Assembly (NCBI RefSeq): GCF_016026235.1
Contig: NZ_CP065613.1
Source of the DNA: Escherichia coli
Lineage (GTDB): Bacteria > Pseudomonadota > Gammaproteobacteria > Enterobacterales > Enterobacteriaceae
Reading direction: 5' to 3' (one strand)
Length of the DNA: 64,000 nt
The notes under the pieces were generated by a model. That model saw only the letters and a program-made list of their open reading frames with translations. It did no database searches and had not been told where the DNA came from. The translations under genes were made by a program, and so were the position numbers. Shown piece after piece: positions 9,350 to 17,070 of this stretch; the first letter of the stretch is position 1, and each line of letters starts with the position of its first letter.

Positions 9350-9350
<1 letters not shown>

Positions 9351-12300
9351 TACCATTTCACCGTCATCGACAAAAACCCTGCCGTCTGGGCAAAATCATC
9401 ACTCCCTTTCTGCCACGCCACGCTGCCGCGCAGGGACACTCGCTGACTGATATTGCCCGTGACTCCCACTTTTATTTCACCCCGTCGCTTCACCGCATCG
9501 TCACTGATAGTGCTGCCATCTTCTTCAATTTCCGTCGCATGGGGATCGTGATAATAATTCAGATCTAATGTTGGTGTGACACCAACCGCGGTACGCCATT
9601 CGCTGTGTAAACCCAGCCGCGTCTGAATATCATCCCCCTGCGATTGTGACACGCGCGCATGGTTAGCGGCGGTAAAATCATCCTGCTGCACGCCCTGATA
9701 AATCACCTGCGCCTGCGGTTCAATCACCACACCACGCCCCGGTAACCACTGATACCCGGCTTCCAGCGAGGCGATAATCCCCGACGAGTGGTAATGATCT
9801 GTGCCATCGTCTTGTTCGGAAACATCATTGTTAAACCACGCGTATTGCAGCCAGCTATCCAGCCAGGCCCCCTGCTTCTGATTACCGTGCTGATACCAGC
9901 TTGAGGTCAGCCCAACGGCATAACCGTGGTTCTGGTTATCGGCGCGAGTTCCGGTCATACTCGAGCGGCTGTCGCCCTGGTTATCGCTGTAGCCACCTAC
10001 AATCCCAAGCATCCACTCGCCATCATCGCCCCAGCGCCCGCTAAACAGGTCACCGCTAAGCTGCACCGTAGAAGTGTCTTCCTGCTGAGCCAGTTGCCCT
10101 GCCGCCGTGTAATGATAACGTCCGCCGATAACACGTAAATTCAGCGTCTGACCATCGCCACCAGCGTGATCGCGTCGCTCCATCATAAACGCCTGATTTG
10201 CCGCCCGCAGGTTATTGAGATAACCGCCAACTTTGGCATTCAGCACCGGCTGGTAAGCAGGCGTAGGGGCCGGGTCGGGGGTTGGGTCAGGATCCGGCGT
10301 GGGATCAGGATCGGGAGTCGGGTCTGGCTCAGGTGGCGATGGCGGCGTTACTTCTTGCGATCGCAGATACCAGTCGTTGTTATCTTCCACTAGCGTGTAG
10401 TCATACGCTCCCATGTTGACGTAGCCACTGCCAGCCAGACTGAACTGTGCATTGTTTTGAAACTGCGTGGGATCAGCTGCGAAATCAACCACTTTAATGC
10501 CTGTCGATGTCGGCTCACCAATCCCTGTAATGGAGTTAACCACCACAGTTGTGTTGCCAGCAGTATTACCGTTCATCACCAATTGATCGCTTACCGAGTC
10601 ATCGCCGTTTAATTCGCTGTCGAACAGTAGCGTACCGCCGCCGGTATAATCACCGTTTACCGTCAGCGTATCGCCAGCGACGCCATTTTGCAGGCTAACC
10701 GCACCGGACGTATTGGTCAGATCACCATTAACCGTCACGTCAGCAAGATAGGTCAGGCTGTCAGTTTCAAGGTTGGTATTAAGCTCGCCTGTCAACGTCA
10801 CGCCATCGGTAGCATTTACCAGCGTCCCATCGCCGTTAAATAGTGAGGCATTAAGGGCGGCGGAAGTATCCTGCCCGGTCAGACGCAAAACCGTGCCATC
10901 GCTGATGTCGATAGTGCCGCTGGAAGTAGCATCAATTGACTGAATATCCTGATCCGCGCCAGTAACGAACGTTGCCCCATCACCAACCCACAGTGACGAA
11001 GCATAAGGAAAGATATCCGCAACATCGCCTTTCAGGGTGCCTTCTTCGACACGTACCGCCGACTGCGTTGTACCGCTGGCGGTCAGCTCCAGCGTACCCG
11101 CCCCCGTTTTAGTAAATGTGCTACCCTCATCCTGATGCTGCCCGCTGCTGTCAGCCATCAGTGCGCCCCACTGCGTGTCTACCCCCGCATCAACTGCCAC
11201 TTCACCGTCGGCGCGCATTTCAATATCACGCCCATGCTCAGTCGGCGTAGAGCGAGTATCGACATTGGCAGTAATCTCCATCACGCTTTCTTGTTGCTTA
11301 TCGGTAAAGATAACCTGGCGGTTATAGTGGGTATCTCCAAGCTGCGAGTTGTCGCTCACCATCAGCGTACCGGAGGCGATTTGTGTTGTGCCCAAATAAC
11401 TATTATTGTTTGCCAGACTTACCTGCCCGTCGCTCGCATCGACCACCACGTAGACGCCATCTTTCCCGTCGCCGCCGATATGCAAATTGTCGCCACCTGC
11501 AAGATCTACCACATCCTGACTGCCGATAACCGTTCCGCTGCTGCCACTGACTTCAAGGCCATCATTGTATGATGTGCCGCTCTGCCAGGTGGAGAAATCA
11601 GAGAGATCGAGCATACCGCCGTTTAACACGATCGACTGCGGATCGTCCTGGAGAGCGGCAAGATCTGCCGCGTCGCCTTCCAGCGAAAGCACCGCACCAG
11701 CATCCACCACTATATCGCCGGTCAGCGCCATCGACTGCGCCCCCGCCAGCACATAGCTGCCGTTTTGCGCAATGGTGAGCTGACCAGCACCTTCGATGGT
11801 GCCAGCAAAACTGCCTTGATTAACAGTAACATTGCCACCAGCATCGATATTTAAAGTGCCATTCTGAAAGCCCGTCAATGAGTGCACAAAGGTTTGTTGG
11901 GTGGAGCCAACATTTAGCTCTGCCTGATTCTGGTACTTATCAATACTCCCTATCGTCAGACCGTAGCAGTCTTGCGGATCGTCCTGGCAATGAGTATCGC
12001 CGACATTCATCAGGGAGTTGCTGCGGCCCAAGGTAACTTCACCGTTTTCAATCTGCATCTCACCAGTAAAGTCATTGTTATCTGCATTAAGTACCAGATC
12101 GCCGGAACCTGTTTTGGTGATTAACCCAGTACCAGCAATAGAGTCAACAGCTCCGTCATTCTCTGTATTGCCAATAACCAGCGTTTTTCCGTCGGCAATA
12201 TCAAAGGTAACTTCACTTAAGCCGAGATACATAAAGCCACCCGCCGCAGAGGAAGGACCATCTCCATAGCCTGCTGCGCTATTGTTCTCATCGACTAACA

Positions 12301-13102
12301 CGCCTCCGTTCTGGCTGTAGTTGTCATCAACAGAAATATCAATAAGATAGGGAGCCGTCGCGCTATTGGTATATATCGCCCCGCCATAACCTTCGGCAGT
12401 GTTATTTGTAAAGGCAGTGTTATTTATTATCATATAACCTGAAGGATGCTTGCTGTCGCTATTATTATCTGTGACATCGATTGCGCCGCCATCGCCATCA
12501 CTGTAATTTGTTGATGTATATGCCTGGTTATTGTTAAAAACATCATCACTTAAATAGATATCATTATTGATGGTATAAATTGCACCACCTTTGCCGTCAT
12601 TAGCGATGTTATTGCGAAACACGGCGTTAGTGACACGTAAATCGATGGCACCGGTATCGTTAGTACCAGAAGAATAGATTGCGCCACCATAGCCGCCTGC
12701 GACGTTACCAGAAAAAATAACATCCGTAAGATTCAGCGTTGAGTTTTCTTTAGCAAATATTGCCCCGCCGTTATTATATTCTCCTGAAACGGTGTTATTG
12801 GCAAACAGAGTCATTCCAGTTTCATTTTCTGGTGATAATGTAAATTCCGCTCCTTGTTGCAAAAATACGGCCCCACCGCTGGCATTATTGGTCATATCCG
12901 AAAAAACCAGCCATTGCCCATCGGCGATACTCCAGACCTGCGTAATGCCTGAAAGGCTTTGCCTGCTGGCGTGACAACTCGCTTTGATATCATATCCCTG
13001 GCATAAATCAATGGCCGCCGCGACACCGTTAGCAGAGAAAAGAGATGCAATCATTGACGGGAGTAGAGATAAATACTCCTTGCGTAGAAAGATAATCCGC
13101 AT
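9350..13102 (-). CDS. yfaL: AIDA-I type autotransporter adhesin YfaL
   Basis: 1250-aa ORF with a passenger domain of repeated GGAIY/GNT motifs, a Pro-Thr-Asp linker and a C-terminal beta-barrel ending in W. Confidence 0.93.
10264..10345 (-). repeat. tandem PT/PD-encoding repeat inside yfaL
   Basis: DNA gggtcgggggttgggtcaggatccggcgtgggatcaggatcgggagtcgggtctgg... encodes PPSPPEPDPTPDPDPTPDPDPTPDPAPTP. Confidence 0.7.
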
Positions 13103-13149
13103 ATTAATCTGACCATCATTTTATATAAGACGGCGGTAATGACTCCAAC

Positions 13150-13653
13150 TTACTGATAGTGTTTTATGTTCAGATAATGCCCGATGACCTTGTCATGCAG
13201 CTCCACCGATTTTGAGAACGACAGTGACTTCCGTCCCAGCCTTGCCAGATGTTGTCTCAGATTCAGATTATGTCGCTCAATGCGCTGAGTGTAACGCTTG
13301 CTGATAACGTGCAGCTTTCCCTTCAGGCGTGATTCATACAGCGGCCAGCCATCCGTCATCCATACCACGACCTCAAAGGCCGACAGCAGGCTCAGAAGAC
13401 GCTCCAGTGTGGCCAGAGTGCGTTCACCGAAGACGTGCGCCACAACCGTCCTCCGTATCCTGTCATACGCGTAAAACAGCCAGCGCTGACGTGATTTAGC
13501 ACCGACGTAGCCCCACTGTTCGTCCATTTCAGCGCAGACAATCACATCACTGCCCGGTTGTATGCGCGAGGTTACCGACTGCGGCCTGAGTTTTTTAAGT
13601 GACGTAAAACCGTGTTGAGGCCAACGCCCATAATGCGTGCACTGGCGCGACAT
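13150..13653 (-). CDS. insB: IS1 InsB frame (expressed as InsAB' transposase by -1 frameshift)
   Basis: 167-aa ORF ...[58 protein letters not shown]...; overlaps insA in the -1 frame. Confidence 0.9.
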
Positions 13654-13847
13654 CCGACGCCATTCATGGCCATATCAATGATTTTCTGGTGCGTACCGGG
13701 CTGAGAGGCGGTGTAAGTGAACTGTAGTTGCCATGTTTTACGGCAATGAGAGCAGAGATAGCGCTGATGTCCGGCAGTGCTTTTGCCGTTACGCACCACG
13801 CCTTCAGTAGCGGAGCAGGAAGGACATCTGATGGAAATGGAAGCCAC
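13572..13847 (-). CDS. insA: IS1 protein InsA
   Basis: 91 aa [43 protein letters not shown]...; zinc-finger CxxC..CxxC; differs at several residues from the K-12 IS1 InsA as I recall it; A6C slippery site ttaaaaaac (13588-13596, minus strand) near its 3' end. Confidence 0.93.
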
Positions 13848-14412
13848 GCAAGCACCTTAAAATCACCATCATACACTAAATCAGTAAGTTGGCAGCATTA
13901 CCTAAGACGGCATATTTAAACGCATTATACAATATGGGTTATCTTTCTTTTGTAAATTGTCCAACCCGATACAATAGCTATTTTGTTATTATTTGATGAA
14001 TAGTATCAGTGCGTCATAATTCAAGTTAATAACCTTAAGGGATATCAGTTATATTTAAACTAAATTAAAGTAATGAATAATTTTCTTATAATATAAGCTA
14101 AATTAACAAAATGGCTTCGCATTTAACAATAACCGAATAGAAAACAACCATTTCGACATCAACAATCGCTTACATTCGCTTATATATTGACCACAACTGA
14201 TACATCAGATTATGTGATGACTCGTGCTTAGATCAATTTTTGCAATCATTAGCAAAAAGATTAATAAACCATCTATATCAATTTATCCAACCTATTCTGC
14301 CGTTCAAGAAATCGCCGAACAGTTATTTTTAACAAATTTTTCTCTTCCCATTGACTTTCCCGGACACCTTGTCTGACCTAAGGTGCGCGAAAGCCACTTT
14401 TTCCTTCCTGAG

Positions 14413-14421
14413 TTATCCACA
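14413..14421 (+). promoter_or_regulatory. DnaA box (TTATCCACA) upstream of nrdA
   Basis: Exact match to the DnaA box consensus TTATNCACA about 155 bp upstream of the nrdA ATG. Confidence 0.6.
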
Positions 14422-14450
14422 AAGTTATGCACTTGCAAGAGGGCCATTTT

Positions 14451-14574: not shown

Positions 14575-16860
14575 ATGAATCAGAATCTGCTGGTGACAAA
14601 GCGCGACGGTAGCACAGAGCGCATCAATCTCGACAAAATCCATCGCGTTCTGGATTGGGCGGCAGAAGGACTGCATAACGTTTCGATTTCCCAGGTCGAG
14701 CTGCGCTCCCACATTCAGTTTTATGACGGTATCAAGACCTCTGACATCCACGAAACTATTATCAAGGCTGCCGCAGACCTGATCTCCCGTGATGCGCCGG
14801 ATTATCAGTATCTCGCCGCGCGCCTGACGATCTTCCACCTGCGTAAAAAAGCCTACGGCCAGTTTGAGCCGCCTGCGCTGTACGACCACGTGGTGAAAAT
14901 GGTCGAGATGGGCAAATACGATAATCATCTGCTGGAAGACTACACGGAAGAAGAGTTCAAGCAGATGGACACGTTTATCGATCACGACCGTGATATGACC
15001 TTCTCTTATGCTGCCGTTAAGCAACTGGAAGGCAAATATCTGGTACAGAACCGCGTGACCGGCGAAATCTACGAAAGCGCCCAGTTCCTTTATATTCTGG
15101 TTGCCGCGTGCCTGTTCTCGAACTACCCGCGTGAAACGCGCCTGCAATATGTGAAGCGTTTTTACGACGCGGTTTCCACATTTAAAATTTCGCTGCCGAC
15201 GCCAATCATGTCCGGCGTGCGTACCCCGACTCGTCAGTTCAGCTCCTGCGTACTGATCGAGTGCGGCGACAGCCTGGATTCCATCAACGCCACCTCCAGC
15301 GCGATTGTGAAATATGTTTCCCAGCGTGCCGGGATCGGCATCAACGCCGGGCGTATTCGTGCGCTGGGTAGCCCGATTCGCGGTGGCGAAGCGTTCCATA
15401 CCGGCTGCATTCCGTTCTACAAACATTTCCAGACTGCGGTGAAATCCTGCTCTCAGGGCGGCGTGCGCGGCGGTGCGGCAACGCTGTTCTACCCGATGTG
15501 GCATCTGGAAGTGGAAAGCCTGCTGGTGTTGAAAAACAACCGTGGTGTGGAAGGCAACCGCGTGCGTCATATGGACTACGGGGTACAAATCAACAAACTG
15601 ATGTATACCCGTCTGCTGAAAGGTGAAGATATCACCCTGTTCAGCCCGTCCGACGTACCGGGGCTGTACGACGCATTCTTCGCCGATCAGGAAGAGTTTG
15701 AACGCCTGTATACCAAATATGAGAAAGACGACAGCATCCGCAAGCAGCGTGTGAAAGCCGTTGAGCTGTTCTCGCTGATGATGCAGGAACGTGCGTCTAC
15801 CGGTCGTATCTATATTCAGAACGTTGACCACTGCAATACCCATAGCCCGTTTGATCCGACCATCGCGCCAGTGCGTCAGTCTAACCTGTGCCTGGAGATA
15901 GCCCTGCCGACCAAACCGCTGAACGACGTCAACGACGAGAACGGTGAAATCGCGCTGTGTACGCTGTCTGCTTTCAACCTGGGCGCAATTAATAGCCTGG
16001 ATGAACTGGAAGAGCTGGCAATTCTGGCGGTTCGTGCACTTGACGCGCTGCTGGATTATCAGGATTACCCGATCCCGGCCGCCAAACGTGGAGCGATGGG
16101 TCGTCGTACGCTGGGTATTGGTGTGATCAACTTCGCTTACTACCTGGCGAAGCACGGTAAACGTTACTCCGACGGCAGCGCCAACAACCTGACGCATAAA
16201 ACCTTCGAAGCGATTCAGTATTACCTGCTGAAAGCGTCTAATGAGCTGGCGAAAGAGCAAGGCGCGTGCCCGTGGTTTAACGAAACCACTTACGCGAAAG
16301 GGATCCTGCCGATCGATACCTATAAGAAAGATCTGGATGCCATCGCTAATGAACCACTGCATTACGACTGGGAAGCACTGCGTGAGTCAATCAAAACGCA
16401 CGGTCTGCGTAACTCCACGCTTTCTGCCCTGATGCCGTCCGAGACTTCTTCACAGATCTCTAACGCCACTAACGGTATTGAACCGCCGCGCGGTTACGTC
16501 AGCATCAAAGCGTCGAAAGACGGTATTCTGCGCCAGGTAGTGCCGGACTACGAGCATCTGCACGACGCCTATGAGCTGCTGTGGGAAATGCCGGGTAACG
16601 ATGGCTACCTGCAACTGGTGGGTATCATGCAGAAATTTATCGATCAGTCGATCTCTGCTAACACCAACTACGATCCGTCACGCTTCCCGTCAGGAAAAGT
16701 GCCGATGCAGCAATTGCTGAAAGACCTGCTCACCGCCTACAAATTCGGGGTCAAAACGCTGTATTATCAGAACACCCGTGACGGCGCTGAAGACGCGCAG
16801 GACGATCTGGTGCCGTCAATCCAGGACGATGGCTGCGAAAGCGGCGCATGTAAGATCTGA
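14575..16860 (+). CDS. nrdA: class Ia ribonucleoside-diphosphate reductase alpha subunit
   Basis: 761-aa ORF MNQNLLVTKRDGSTERINLDKIHRVLDWAAEGL...; ATP-cone N-terminus; C-terminal ...DDGCESGACKI. Confidence 0.98.
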   Translation: MNQNLLVTKRDGSTERINLDKIHRVLDWAAEGLHNVSISQVELRSHIQFYDGIKTSDIHETIIKAAADLISRDAPDYQYLAARLTIFHLRKKAYGQFEPPALYDHVVKMVEMGKYDNHLLEDYTEEEFKQMDTFIDHDRDMTFSYAAVKQLEGKYLVQNRVTGEIYESAQFLYILVAACLFSNYPRETRLQYVKRFYDAVSTFKISLPTPIMSGVRTPTRQFSSCVLIECGDSLDSINATSSAIVKYVSQRAGIGINAGRIRALGSPIRGGEAFHTGCIPFYKHFQTAVKSCSQGGVRGGAATLFYPMWHLEVESLLVLKNNRGVEGNRVRHMDYGVQINKLMYTRLLKGEDITLFSPSDVPGLYDAFFADQEEFERLYTKYEKDDSIRKQRVKAVELFSLMMQERASTGRIYIQNVDHCNTHSPFDPTIAPVRQSNLCLEIALPTKPLNDVNDENGEIALCTLSAFNLGAINSLDELEELAILAVRALDALLDYQDYPIPAAKRGAMGRRTLGIGVINFAYYLAKHGKRYSDGSANNLTHKTFEAIQYYLLKASNELAKEQGACPWFNETTYAKGILPIDTYKKDLDAIANEPLHYDWEALRESIKTHGLRNSTLSALMPSETSSQISNATNGIEPPRGYVSIKASKDGILRQVVPDYEHLHDAYELLWEMPGNDGYLQLVGIMQKFIDQSISANTNYDPSRFPSGKVPMQQLLKDLLTAYKFGVKTLYYQNTRDGAEDAQDDLVPSIQDDGCESGACKI

Positions 16861-16868
16861 TATTGAGA

Positions 16869-17070
16869 TGCCGGATGCGGCGTAAACGCCTTATCAGGCC
16901 TACGGCTCGGTTTGTAGGCCTGATTAGACGCGCCAGCGTCGCATCAGGCTCCGGGTGCCGGATGCAGCGTGAACGCCTTATCCGGCCTACGGCTCGGTTT
17001 GTAGGCCTGATTAGACGCGCCAGCGTCGCATCAGGCACAGGATGCGGCGTAAAATGCCTTATCCGGCATT
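16869..17070. repeat. BIME/REP cluster between nrdA and nrdB
   Basis: Two near-identical ~80-bp units (...cttatc[a/c]ggcctacggctcggtttgtaggcctgattagacgcgccagcgtcgcatcaggc...) plus a third REP. Short ORFs called here in the track are repeat artefacts. Confidence 0.85.

Follow-up and report, generated by a model that had tools for sequence, protein, structure and literature searches.

The autotransporter gene yfaL in the Escherichia coli DNA analysed here is preceded by an IS1 of the IS1F type, which inserted recently into a recurrent IS1 target and, as judged from the DNA sequence, is probably a strain polymorphism that is neutral or alters expression mildly. The window, a 64,000-nucleotide stretch of contig NZ_CP065613.1 (assembly GCF_016026235.1), contains the features listed in Table 1. 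A first-pass annotation of the window had placed a 768-bp IS1 at 13135-13902, with insA and insB transcribed toward yfaL, and both coordinates and strands are confirmed. Its placement of the element 32 bp upstream of the yfaL start (13102, minus strand) is likewise correct, as exactly 32 nt (13103-13134) lie between the yfaL ATG and the end of IS1. The event is of an already-known kind, an ordinary IS1 strain polymorphism.

Table 1. Coordinates of the IS1 insertion, its flanks and neighbouring features in the window
Feature	Position	Strand	Remarks
yfaL (ehaC)	9350..13102	minus	AIDA-I-type autotransporter adhesin, intact, 1250 aa
Repeat-hit site inside yfaL 5' end	12841-12849		Hit in YZMc3-1 and EC3, both opposite to the window's IS1; isoforms IS1A, IS1B
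Repeat-hit site inside yfaL 5' end	13047-13056		Hit in SCU-118 and GDSC2BY4G, in opposite orientations
Candidate IS1/flank hybrid promoter	13120..13148	minus	Toward yfaL; TTGGAG-17-TATAAA, 8/12 matches
Target-site duplication, left copy	13126..13134		9 bp, TAAGACGGC
IS1	13135..13902	minus	Intact, IS1F type, 768 bp, 52% GC
IRR	13135..13157	minus	23-nt terminal inverted repeat at yfaL-side end; contains outward -35-like TTGGAG (13148-13143)
insB frame	13150..13653	minus	167-aa ORF, DDE_Tnp_IS1 (Pfam PF03400, E=1e-74)
Promoter-like site within insB	13267-13295	minus	GTTACA-17-CATAAT, toward yfaL; consensus match only
insA	13572..13847	minus	91 aa, zinc-ribbon + HTH (Pfam PF03811, PF12759; Zn_ribbon_InsA, HTH_Tnp_IS1)
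Programmed -1 frameshift motif	13590..13598	minus	TTAAAAAAC (A6C)
IRL	13880..13902	minus	23-nt terminal inverted repeat at yfaL-distal end; overlaps IS1's promoter-like CTGCCA-16-TATGAT (13895->13868)
Outward hybrid promoter-like site	13889-13916	+	TTGGCA (in IRL)-16-CATATT, 9/12 matches
Target-site duplication, right copy	13903..13911		9 bp, TAAGACGGC
Native AT-rich yfaL upstream spacer	13912..14303		26-37% GC; pushed 777 bp from yfaL
Candidate native promoter	13956-13923	minus	TTTACA-16-TATTGT, then TATAAT; promoter scan
Candidate native promoter	14236-14209	minus	TTGATC-16-CATAAT; promoter scan
ypaB	14304..14447	minus	Small ORF, 47 aa, upstream of insertion; from annotation of homologous loci
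nrdA	14575..16860	+	Divergent; start 664 bp past the IS1 duplication
Rfam naRNA4 (CssrE)	16917-16987	minus	Nucleoid-associated ncRNA, nrdA-nrdB spacer; 71 bits, gathering score 59.5
Truncated MFS transporter ORF	19262-20305
IS4-like element	~20291-21739		99% identical to E. coli IS4 copies; adjoins truncated MFS transporter ORF

The insertion is bordered by identical 9-mers, for which the chance at two fixed positions is ~4e-6. To represent the uninterrupted locus, both flanks were joined with one copy of TAAGACGGC and queried against 5426 complete E. coli genomes. Of these, 5382 have the site without interruption, four of them at 100% identity. The window's IS1 allele itself was found in none of the complete E. 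coli genomes, where the best match reaches 95.3%, and the IS1-yfaL junction is also absent from GTDB representative genomes. Two groups of NCBI draft assemblies were found by exact-protein look-up of the window's YfaL. In the first, GCA_002461615.1 and GCA_001907535.1 are 1-5 SNPs away from the window across 9.7 kb, and their empty site contains TAAGACGGC once, which proves the target duplication and bears out the first-pass description of a perfect 9-bp repeat around an unrearranged insertion. In four others (GCA_050054195.1, GCA_002467115.1, GCA_001907545.1 and GCA_002467135.1) the contig breaks off within IS1, at a junction with yfaL identical to that of the window, and these drafts are 100% identical to the window over ~7 kb. 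The IS-free allele that the first-pass annotation had proposed to look for is therefore not only present in the species but the norm, and the same IS1 does not occupy this site in most E. coli genomes, an outcome that the annotation had named as counting against its interpretation. Because near-isogenic drafts have the empty site and nearly all complete genomes are uninterrupted, the insertion is real, recent and lineage-specific; it arose within one clone of an E. coli/Shigella-group lineage. IS1 is a multi-copy repeat in which draft assemblies break, and an assembler might have misplaced it here. Such an artefact has a negligible chance of being the explanation given the perfect duplication and its single copy at the near-isogenic empty sites, and the identical junction in four independent assemblies rules it out for practical purposes.

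The element has the build of the IS1 family: a length of ~768 bp, imperfect inverted repeats of ~23 bp (GGTRATG...; IRR and IRL are complementary at 20/23 positions), overlapping insA and insB, an A6C site, a target duplication within the 8-9 bp range together with an empty site elsewhere, and near-identity to a catalogued isoform (99.3% to K-12 IS1F). When the -1 frameshift is simulated at TTAAAAAAC, the InsAB' transposase is open over 232 aa. With its frames and frameshift site intact, the window copy looks transposition-competent. The first-pass annotation described the element as a variant IS1. That holds relative to K-12 IS1A, from which it differs at 68/768 nucleotides, at 5/91 residues in InsA and at 15/167 in InsB, but not in the sense of an unusual element, since only 5/768 positions separate it from K-12 IS1F. 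The IS1F of K-12 MG1655, located beside fecI (NC_000913.3, 4518472-4519239), is likewise 768 bp, is identical at 763/768 positions and belongs to the same divergent isoform, ~9% from IS1A-E, with the same inverted repeats and GGTAATG ends. It sits at a different locus, and has a stop in insB that makes it an annotated pseudogene, whereas the window copy is intact in insA, insB and the frameshift site. Among the matches listed, copies 100% identical to the window's IS1 occur on E. coli chromosomes and on plasmids of Shigella and E. coli; in 3926 E. coli records the best IS1 match has 99% identity or higher. By these identities the element is a common, catalogued isoform, and the idea of a novel IS1 variant was rejected on its IS1F type.

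Two further promoter-like sites were seen in the element. The -10 CATAAT of the site within insB is present in the window's IS1F-type copy, and its IS1A counterpart reads CATAAC, with the -7T lost. The outward site at the yfaL-distal end faces ypaB, in antisense, and nrdA, whose start is ~660 bp off.

Downstream of the insertion, yfaL itself is well preserved. Its product is 96% identical to K-12 YfaL without gaps, matches the Pfam families Autotransporter beta-domain, AC_1, PATR and Pertactin (PF03797, PF18883, PF12951, PF03212), and has the layout of an AIDA-I-type (type Va) YfaL/EhaC protein, with signal peptide, repeat passenger, autochaperone and C-terminal beta-barrel in one intact ORF. 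On the other side, the YpaB translation differs from K-12 YpaB by one residue and has no Pfam match. The 663 bp from the duplication to nrdA have a GC content of 34%, falling to 26% in 200-bp windows. Among the 78 transcriptionally poor, H-NS-associated "promoter islands" described for K-12 is the yfaL/ypaB spacer (PMC3661553), and a second study lists "yfaL < HNS > nrdA" together with TTGATC-16-CATAAT, a promoter predicted for yfaL (PMC3946193) that corresponds to 14236->14209 in the window. The H-NS context that the first-pass annotation invoked for yfaL thus has support in the literature for the K-12 spacer (PMC3661553, PMC3946193), and the local GC content of 26-37% would fit the H-NS association reported there for K-12. 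All candidate native promoters now lie beyond IS1, 777 bp further from yfaL. Because the native upstream region has been displaced by this distance, any yfaL transcript must either originate in IS1 or at its junction with the flank, or else traverse the whole of IS1. An effect of the insertion on nrdA is unlikely.

An outward -35 exists in the IS1 inverted repeat (PMC8764528), and IS1 fusion promoters have been described for blaTEM and acrEF (PMC9330008). At yfaL, the outward -35-like TTGGAG in IRR matches the consensus at 3/6 positions, with the TTG conserved, and ends 8 nt from the IS1 terminus. These 8 nt and the 9-nt duplication make up a spacer of 17 nt, the optimal spacing, to a TATAAA in the flank that matches at 5/6 positions and is without the conserved -7T. 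An alternative -10, TAAAAT, is available at 19-nt spacing only. In the native spacer, ~4% of positions have a -10 of at least 5/6 matches 16-18 nt away. The junction site fell below the threshold of the promoter scan and was left unflagged. The leader of a junction transcript is predicted to be ~10-12 nt, with no evident Shine-Dalgarno, and a sequence scan found no intrinsic terminator-like site in or near IS1. We consider the predicted junction promoter a weak candidate.

IS1 has landed repeatedly at this site, which borders the very AT-rich spacer on its yfaL-proximal side. Across the complete E. coli genomes and the window, four independent IS1 events fall within ~10 bp, with four isoforms and both orientations, three of the four directed toward yfaL. 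Beside the window event (IS1F type, 9-bp TAAGACGGC, toward yfaL), an E308-type event in at least 14 complete genomes involves another isoform, with 38/768 differences from the window's IS1, and an 8-bp duplication, TAAGACGG, and also points toward yfaL; the 23CRST009 event is an IS1A shifted by 6 bp; and the S931B event is an IS1X4 at AAGATGGCG in the opposite orientation. The E308-type IS1 (e.g. NZ_CP030281.1) has the same right junction and orientation as the window, and yfaL is intact behind it. Its isoform and duplication differ, however, and its flanking haplotype is ~4% diverged from the window, so that it represents an independent event. This allele is found in many hosts and countries, with yfaL mostly intact. 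The two repeat-hit sites inside yfaL fall in its first 90 codons, where the window is intact, and several other insertions, an inversion and adjacent deletions further disrupt yfaL in complete genomes. A first IS1 search, which favoured the query orientation, returned 27 genomes with a same-orientation IS1 within +-400 bp, and a flipped-IS query added 10 with the opposite orientation. Because of these 10 genomes, one of which has its IS1 at the very same site, we discarded the idea that an orientation bias signals selection. Zerbib et al. are said to have found in 1985 that IS1 favours AT-rich DNA. Both orientations at the same positions, together with the many gene-disrupting insertions, favour a target hot spot over selection for activation; we read them as IS1 preferring AT-rich targets, not as orientation-specific selection. 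In EH08-18-36 (NZ_CP063511.1) the E308-type right junction is kept and ~200 bp corresponding to window 12927-13125 are gone. The loss takes in the yfaL start and resembles an adjacent deletion mediated by IS1, starting from the promoter-site insertion. CUPS04 and JMF1 gave the same coverage pattern as EH08-18-36 in that search.

What the insertion does to yfaL would depend on which transcription options it leaves. In the explanation that we favour, an intact and common IS1F-type element has transposed recently, producing a 9-bp duplication 32 nt upstream of the yfaL ATG, and the remaining options would all be weak, namely an InsA-repressed pIRL, the putative internal promoter-like site, and the candidate junction TTGGAG-17-TATAAA lacking the -7T. 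The pIRL promoter of IS1 (CTGCCA-16-TATGAT) is weak and repressed by InsA, and IS1 insertions are classically polar regardless of orientation. The likeliest outcome would then be a neutral or mildly expression-altering polymorphism in which yfaL expression is low, lowered or modestly changed, and strong, selected activation of the adhesin probably did not follow. The effects of same-orientation upstream IS1 copies in ST131 were mixed, with afaA raised, osmB lowered and ugd unchanged (PMC8764528). The alternative raised by the first-pass annotation is that IS1 turns on an H-NS-silenced yfaL, so that the lineage displays the YfaL adhesin, either from an IRR/flank hybrid promoter, by read-through from IS1 promoters, or by uncoupling of the gene from the H-NS-bound promoter island. 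We regard this as possible but unlikely. It draws on the position of the outward -35-like hexamer 8 nt from the IS1 end, where the 9-nt duplication brings TATAAA to 17 nt at a local chance of ~4%, on the H-NS association of the K-12 spacer and on an intact yfaL in the window. Several observations sit uneasily with a neutral or mild effect: a 5/6 -10 at optimal spacing, documented IS1 hybrid promoters (PMC8764528, PMC9330008), three of four independent insertions in the 10-bp site pointing toward yfaL, and the spread of the E308-type insertion in a lineage of wide geographic range that mostly retains an intact yfaL. Moreover, cutting yfaL from an H-NS-nucleating AT-rich tract could alone relieve silencing. 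The closest parallel to activation is the afaA IS1 of E. coli ST131 S10EC, also a same-orientation IS1 upstream of an H-NS-repressed adhesin determinant, where an outward IR -35 is joined to a flank -10, as proposed for yfaL, and transcription rose by ~7 log2 (PMC8764528). There, a strong hybrid promoter and raised expression were shown by experiment, whereas the yfaL junction is weak (8/12, no -7T) and known from sequence alone. Beyond the 3/6 -35 and a total score under the scan threshold, activation is disfavoured by the short predicted leader without an evident Shine-Dalgarno, by the polarity of IS1 and its weak, repressed promoter, and by the opposite-orientation and gene-disrupting IS1 copies at the same hot spots, which speak against orientation-specific selection. 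It is also disfavoured by osmB and ugd, the first of which is lowered by an upstream IS1 and the second unaffected (PMC8764528). The first-pass annotation further compared yfaL with the bgl operon, which can be activated by IS1 or IS5. In both cases an IS has entered an AT-rich, H-NS-bound regulatory region, and expression in K-12 is reportedly poor. At bgl, the inserted IS lies upstream of a promoter that stays intact, and silencing is relieved. The analogy fails on geometry, because at yfaL the whole upstream region is severed: IS1 separates the gene from its candidate native promoters, and 32 nt are left between IS1 and the ATG. Activation would therefore need an IS-borne or hybrid promoter. 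In the papers found on transcription start sites of yfaL, its regulation by H-NS and IS1 at this locus, the gene appears only in genome-wide lists, and the supplement of PMC8764528 does not list it.

Selection could also be sought in the recurrence itself, the ~10-bp site being used repeatedly because insertions there are adaptive, whether they turn the adhesin on or off. Four independent events with four IS1 isoforms within ~10 bp, an E308-type allele known from many hosts and countries (at least 14 complete genomes), and the many IS1 disruptions of the 5' part of yfaL, which could mean selection against a surface antigen, would all fit. A target hot spot, however, predicts both orientations at the same positions, as found for S931B against the window and for SCU-118 against GDSC2BY4G, and IS1 prefers AT-rich DNA such as this region of 26-37% GC. 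We find convergent selection highly improbable. Its most elaborate form, in which the 10-bp site and the two sites in the first 90 codons of yfaL would constitute a convergent IS1 on/off "switch", with the window allele "on" via the IRR/flank promoter and free of the H-NS island, earns equally little credence. A recent IS1F-type insertion at a recurrent target, neutral or mild in effect, remains the explanation that we prefer, and in itself the insertion amounts to a routine IS polymorphism, a marker of one lineage. The repeated insertions at the same few bp provide a small, clean example of IS1 hot spots in AT-rich, H-NS-associated DNA, and the natural near-isogenic IS1+/IS1- assemblies are a useful by-product. 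Should activation of yfaL prove true, the locus would add one more IS1-driven adhesin variation, like afa in ST131, and would supply a natural IS1+/IS1- pair, from the same accession series, for escape from H-NS "promoter island" silencing.

The surrounding region has some features of its own. The closest of the 5426 complete E. coli genomes is 98.9% identical to positions 14000-38999 at 94% coverage, although the 418 bp around the insertion site have 100% identity to four of these genomes. Complete E. coli genomes represent this lineage poorly, and the region is mosaic-looking. The naRNA4 between nrdA and nrdB is the sole Rfam match within the window. Further on, the transposase frame of the IS4-like element is broken into 325-aa and 183-aa pieces, and a matching left terminal repeat was looked for and not found, so that the copy is apparently degraded. 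Most of the uncovered 6% of the 25-kb query in the closest genomes is due to this element.
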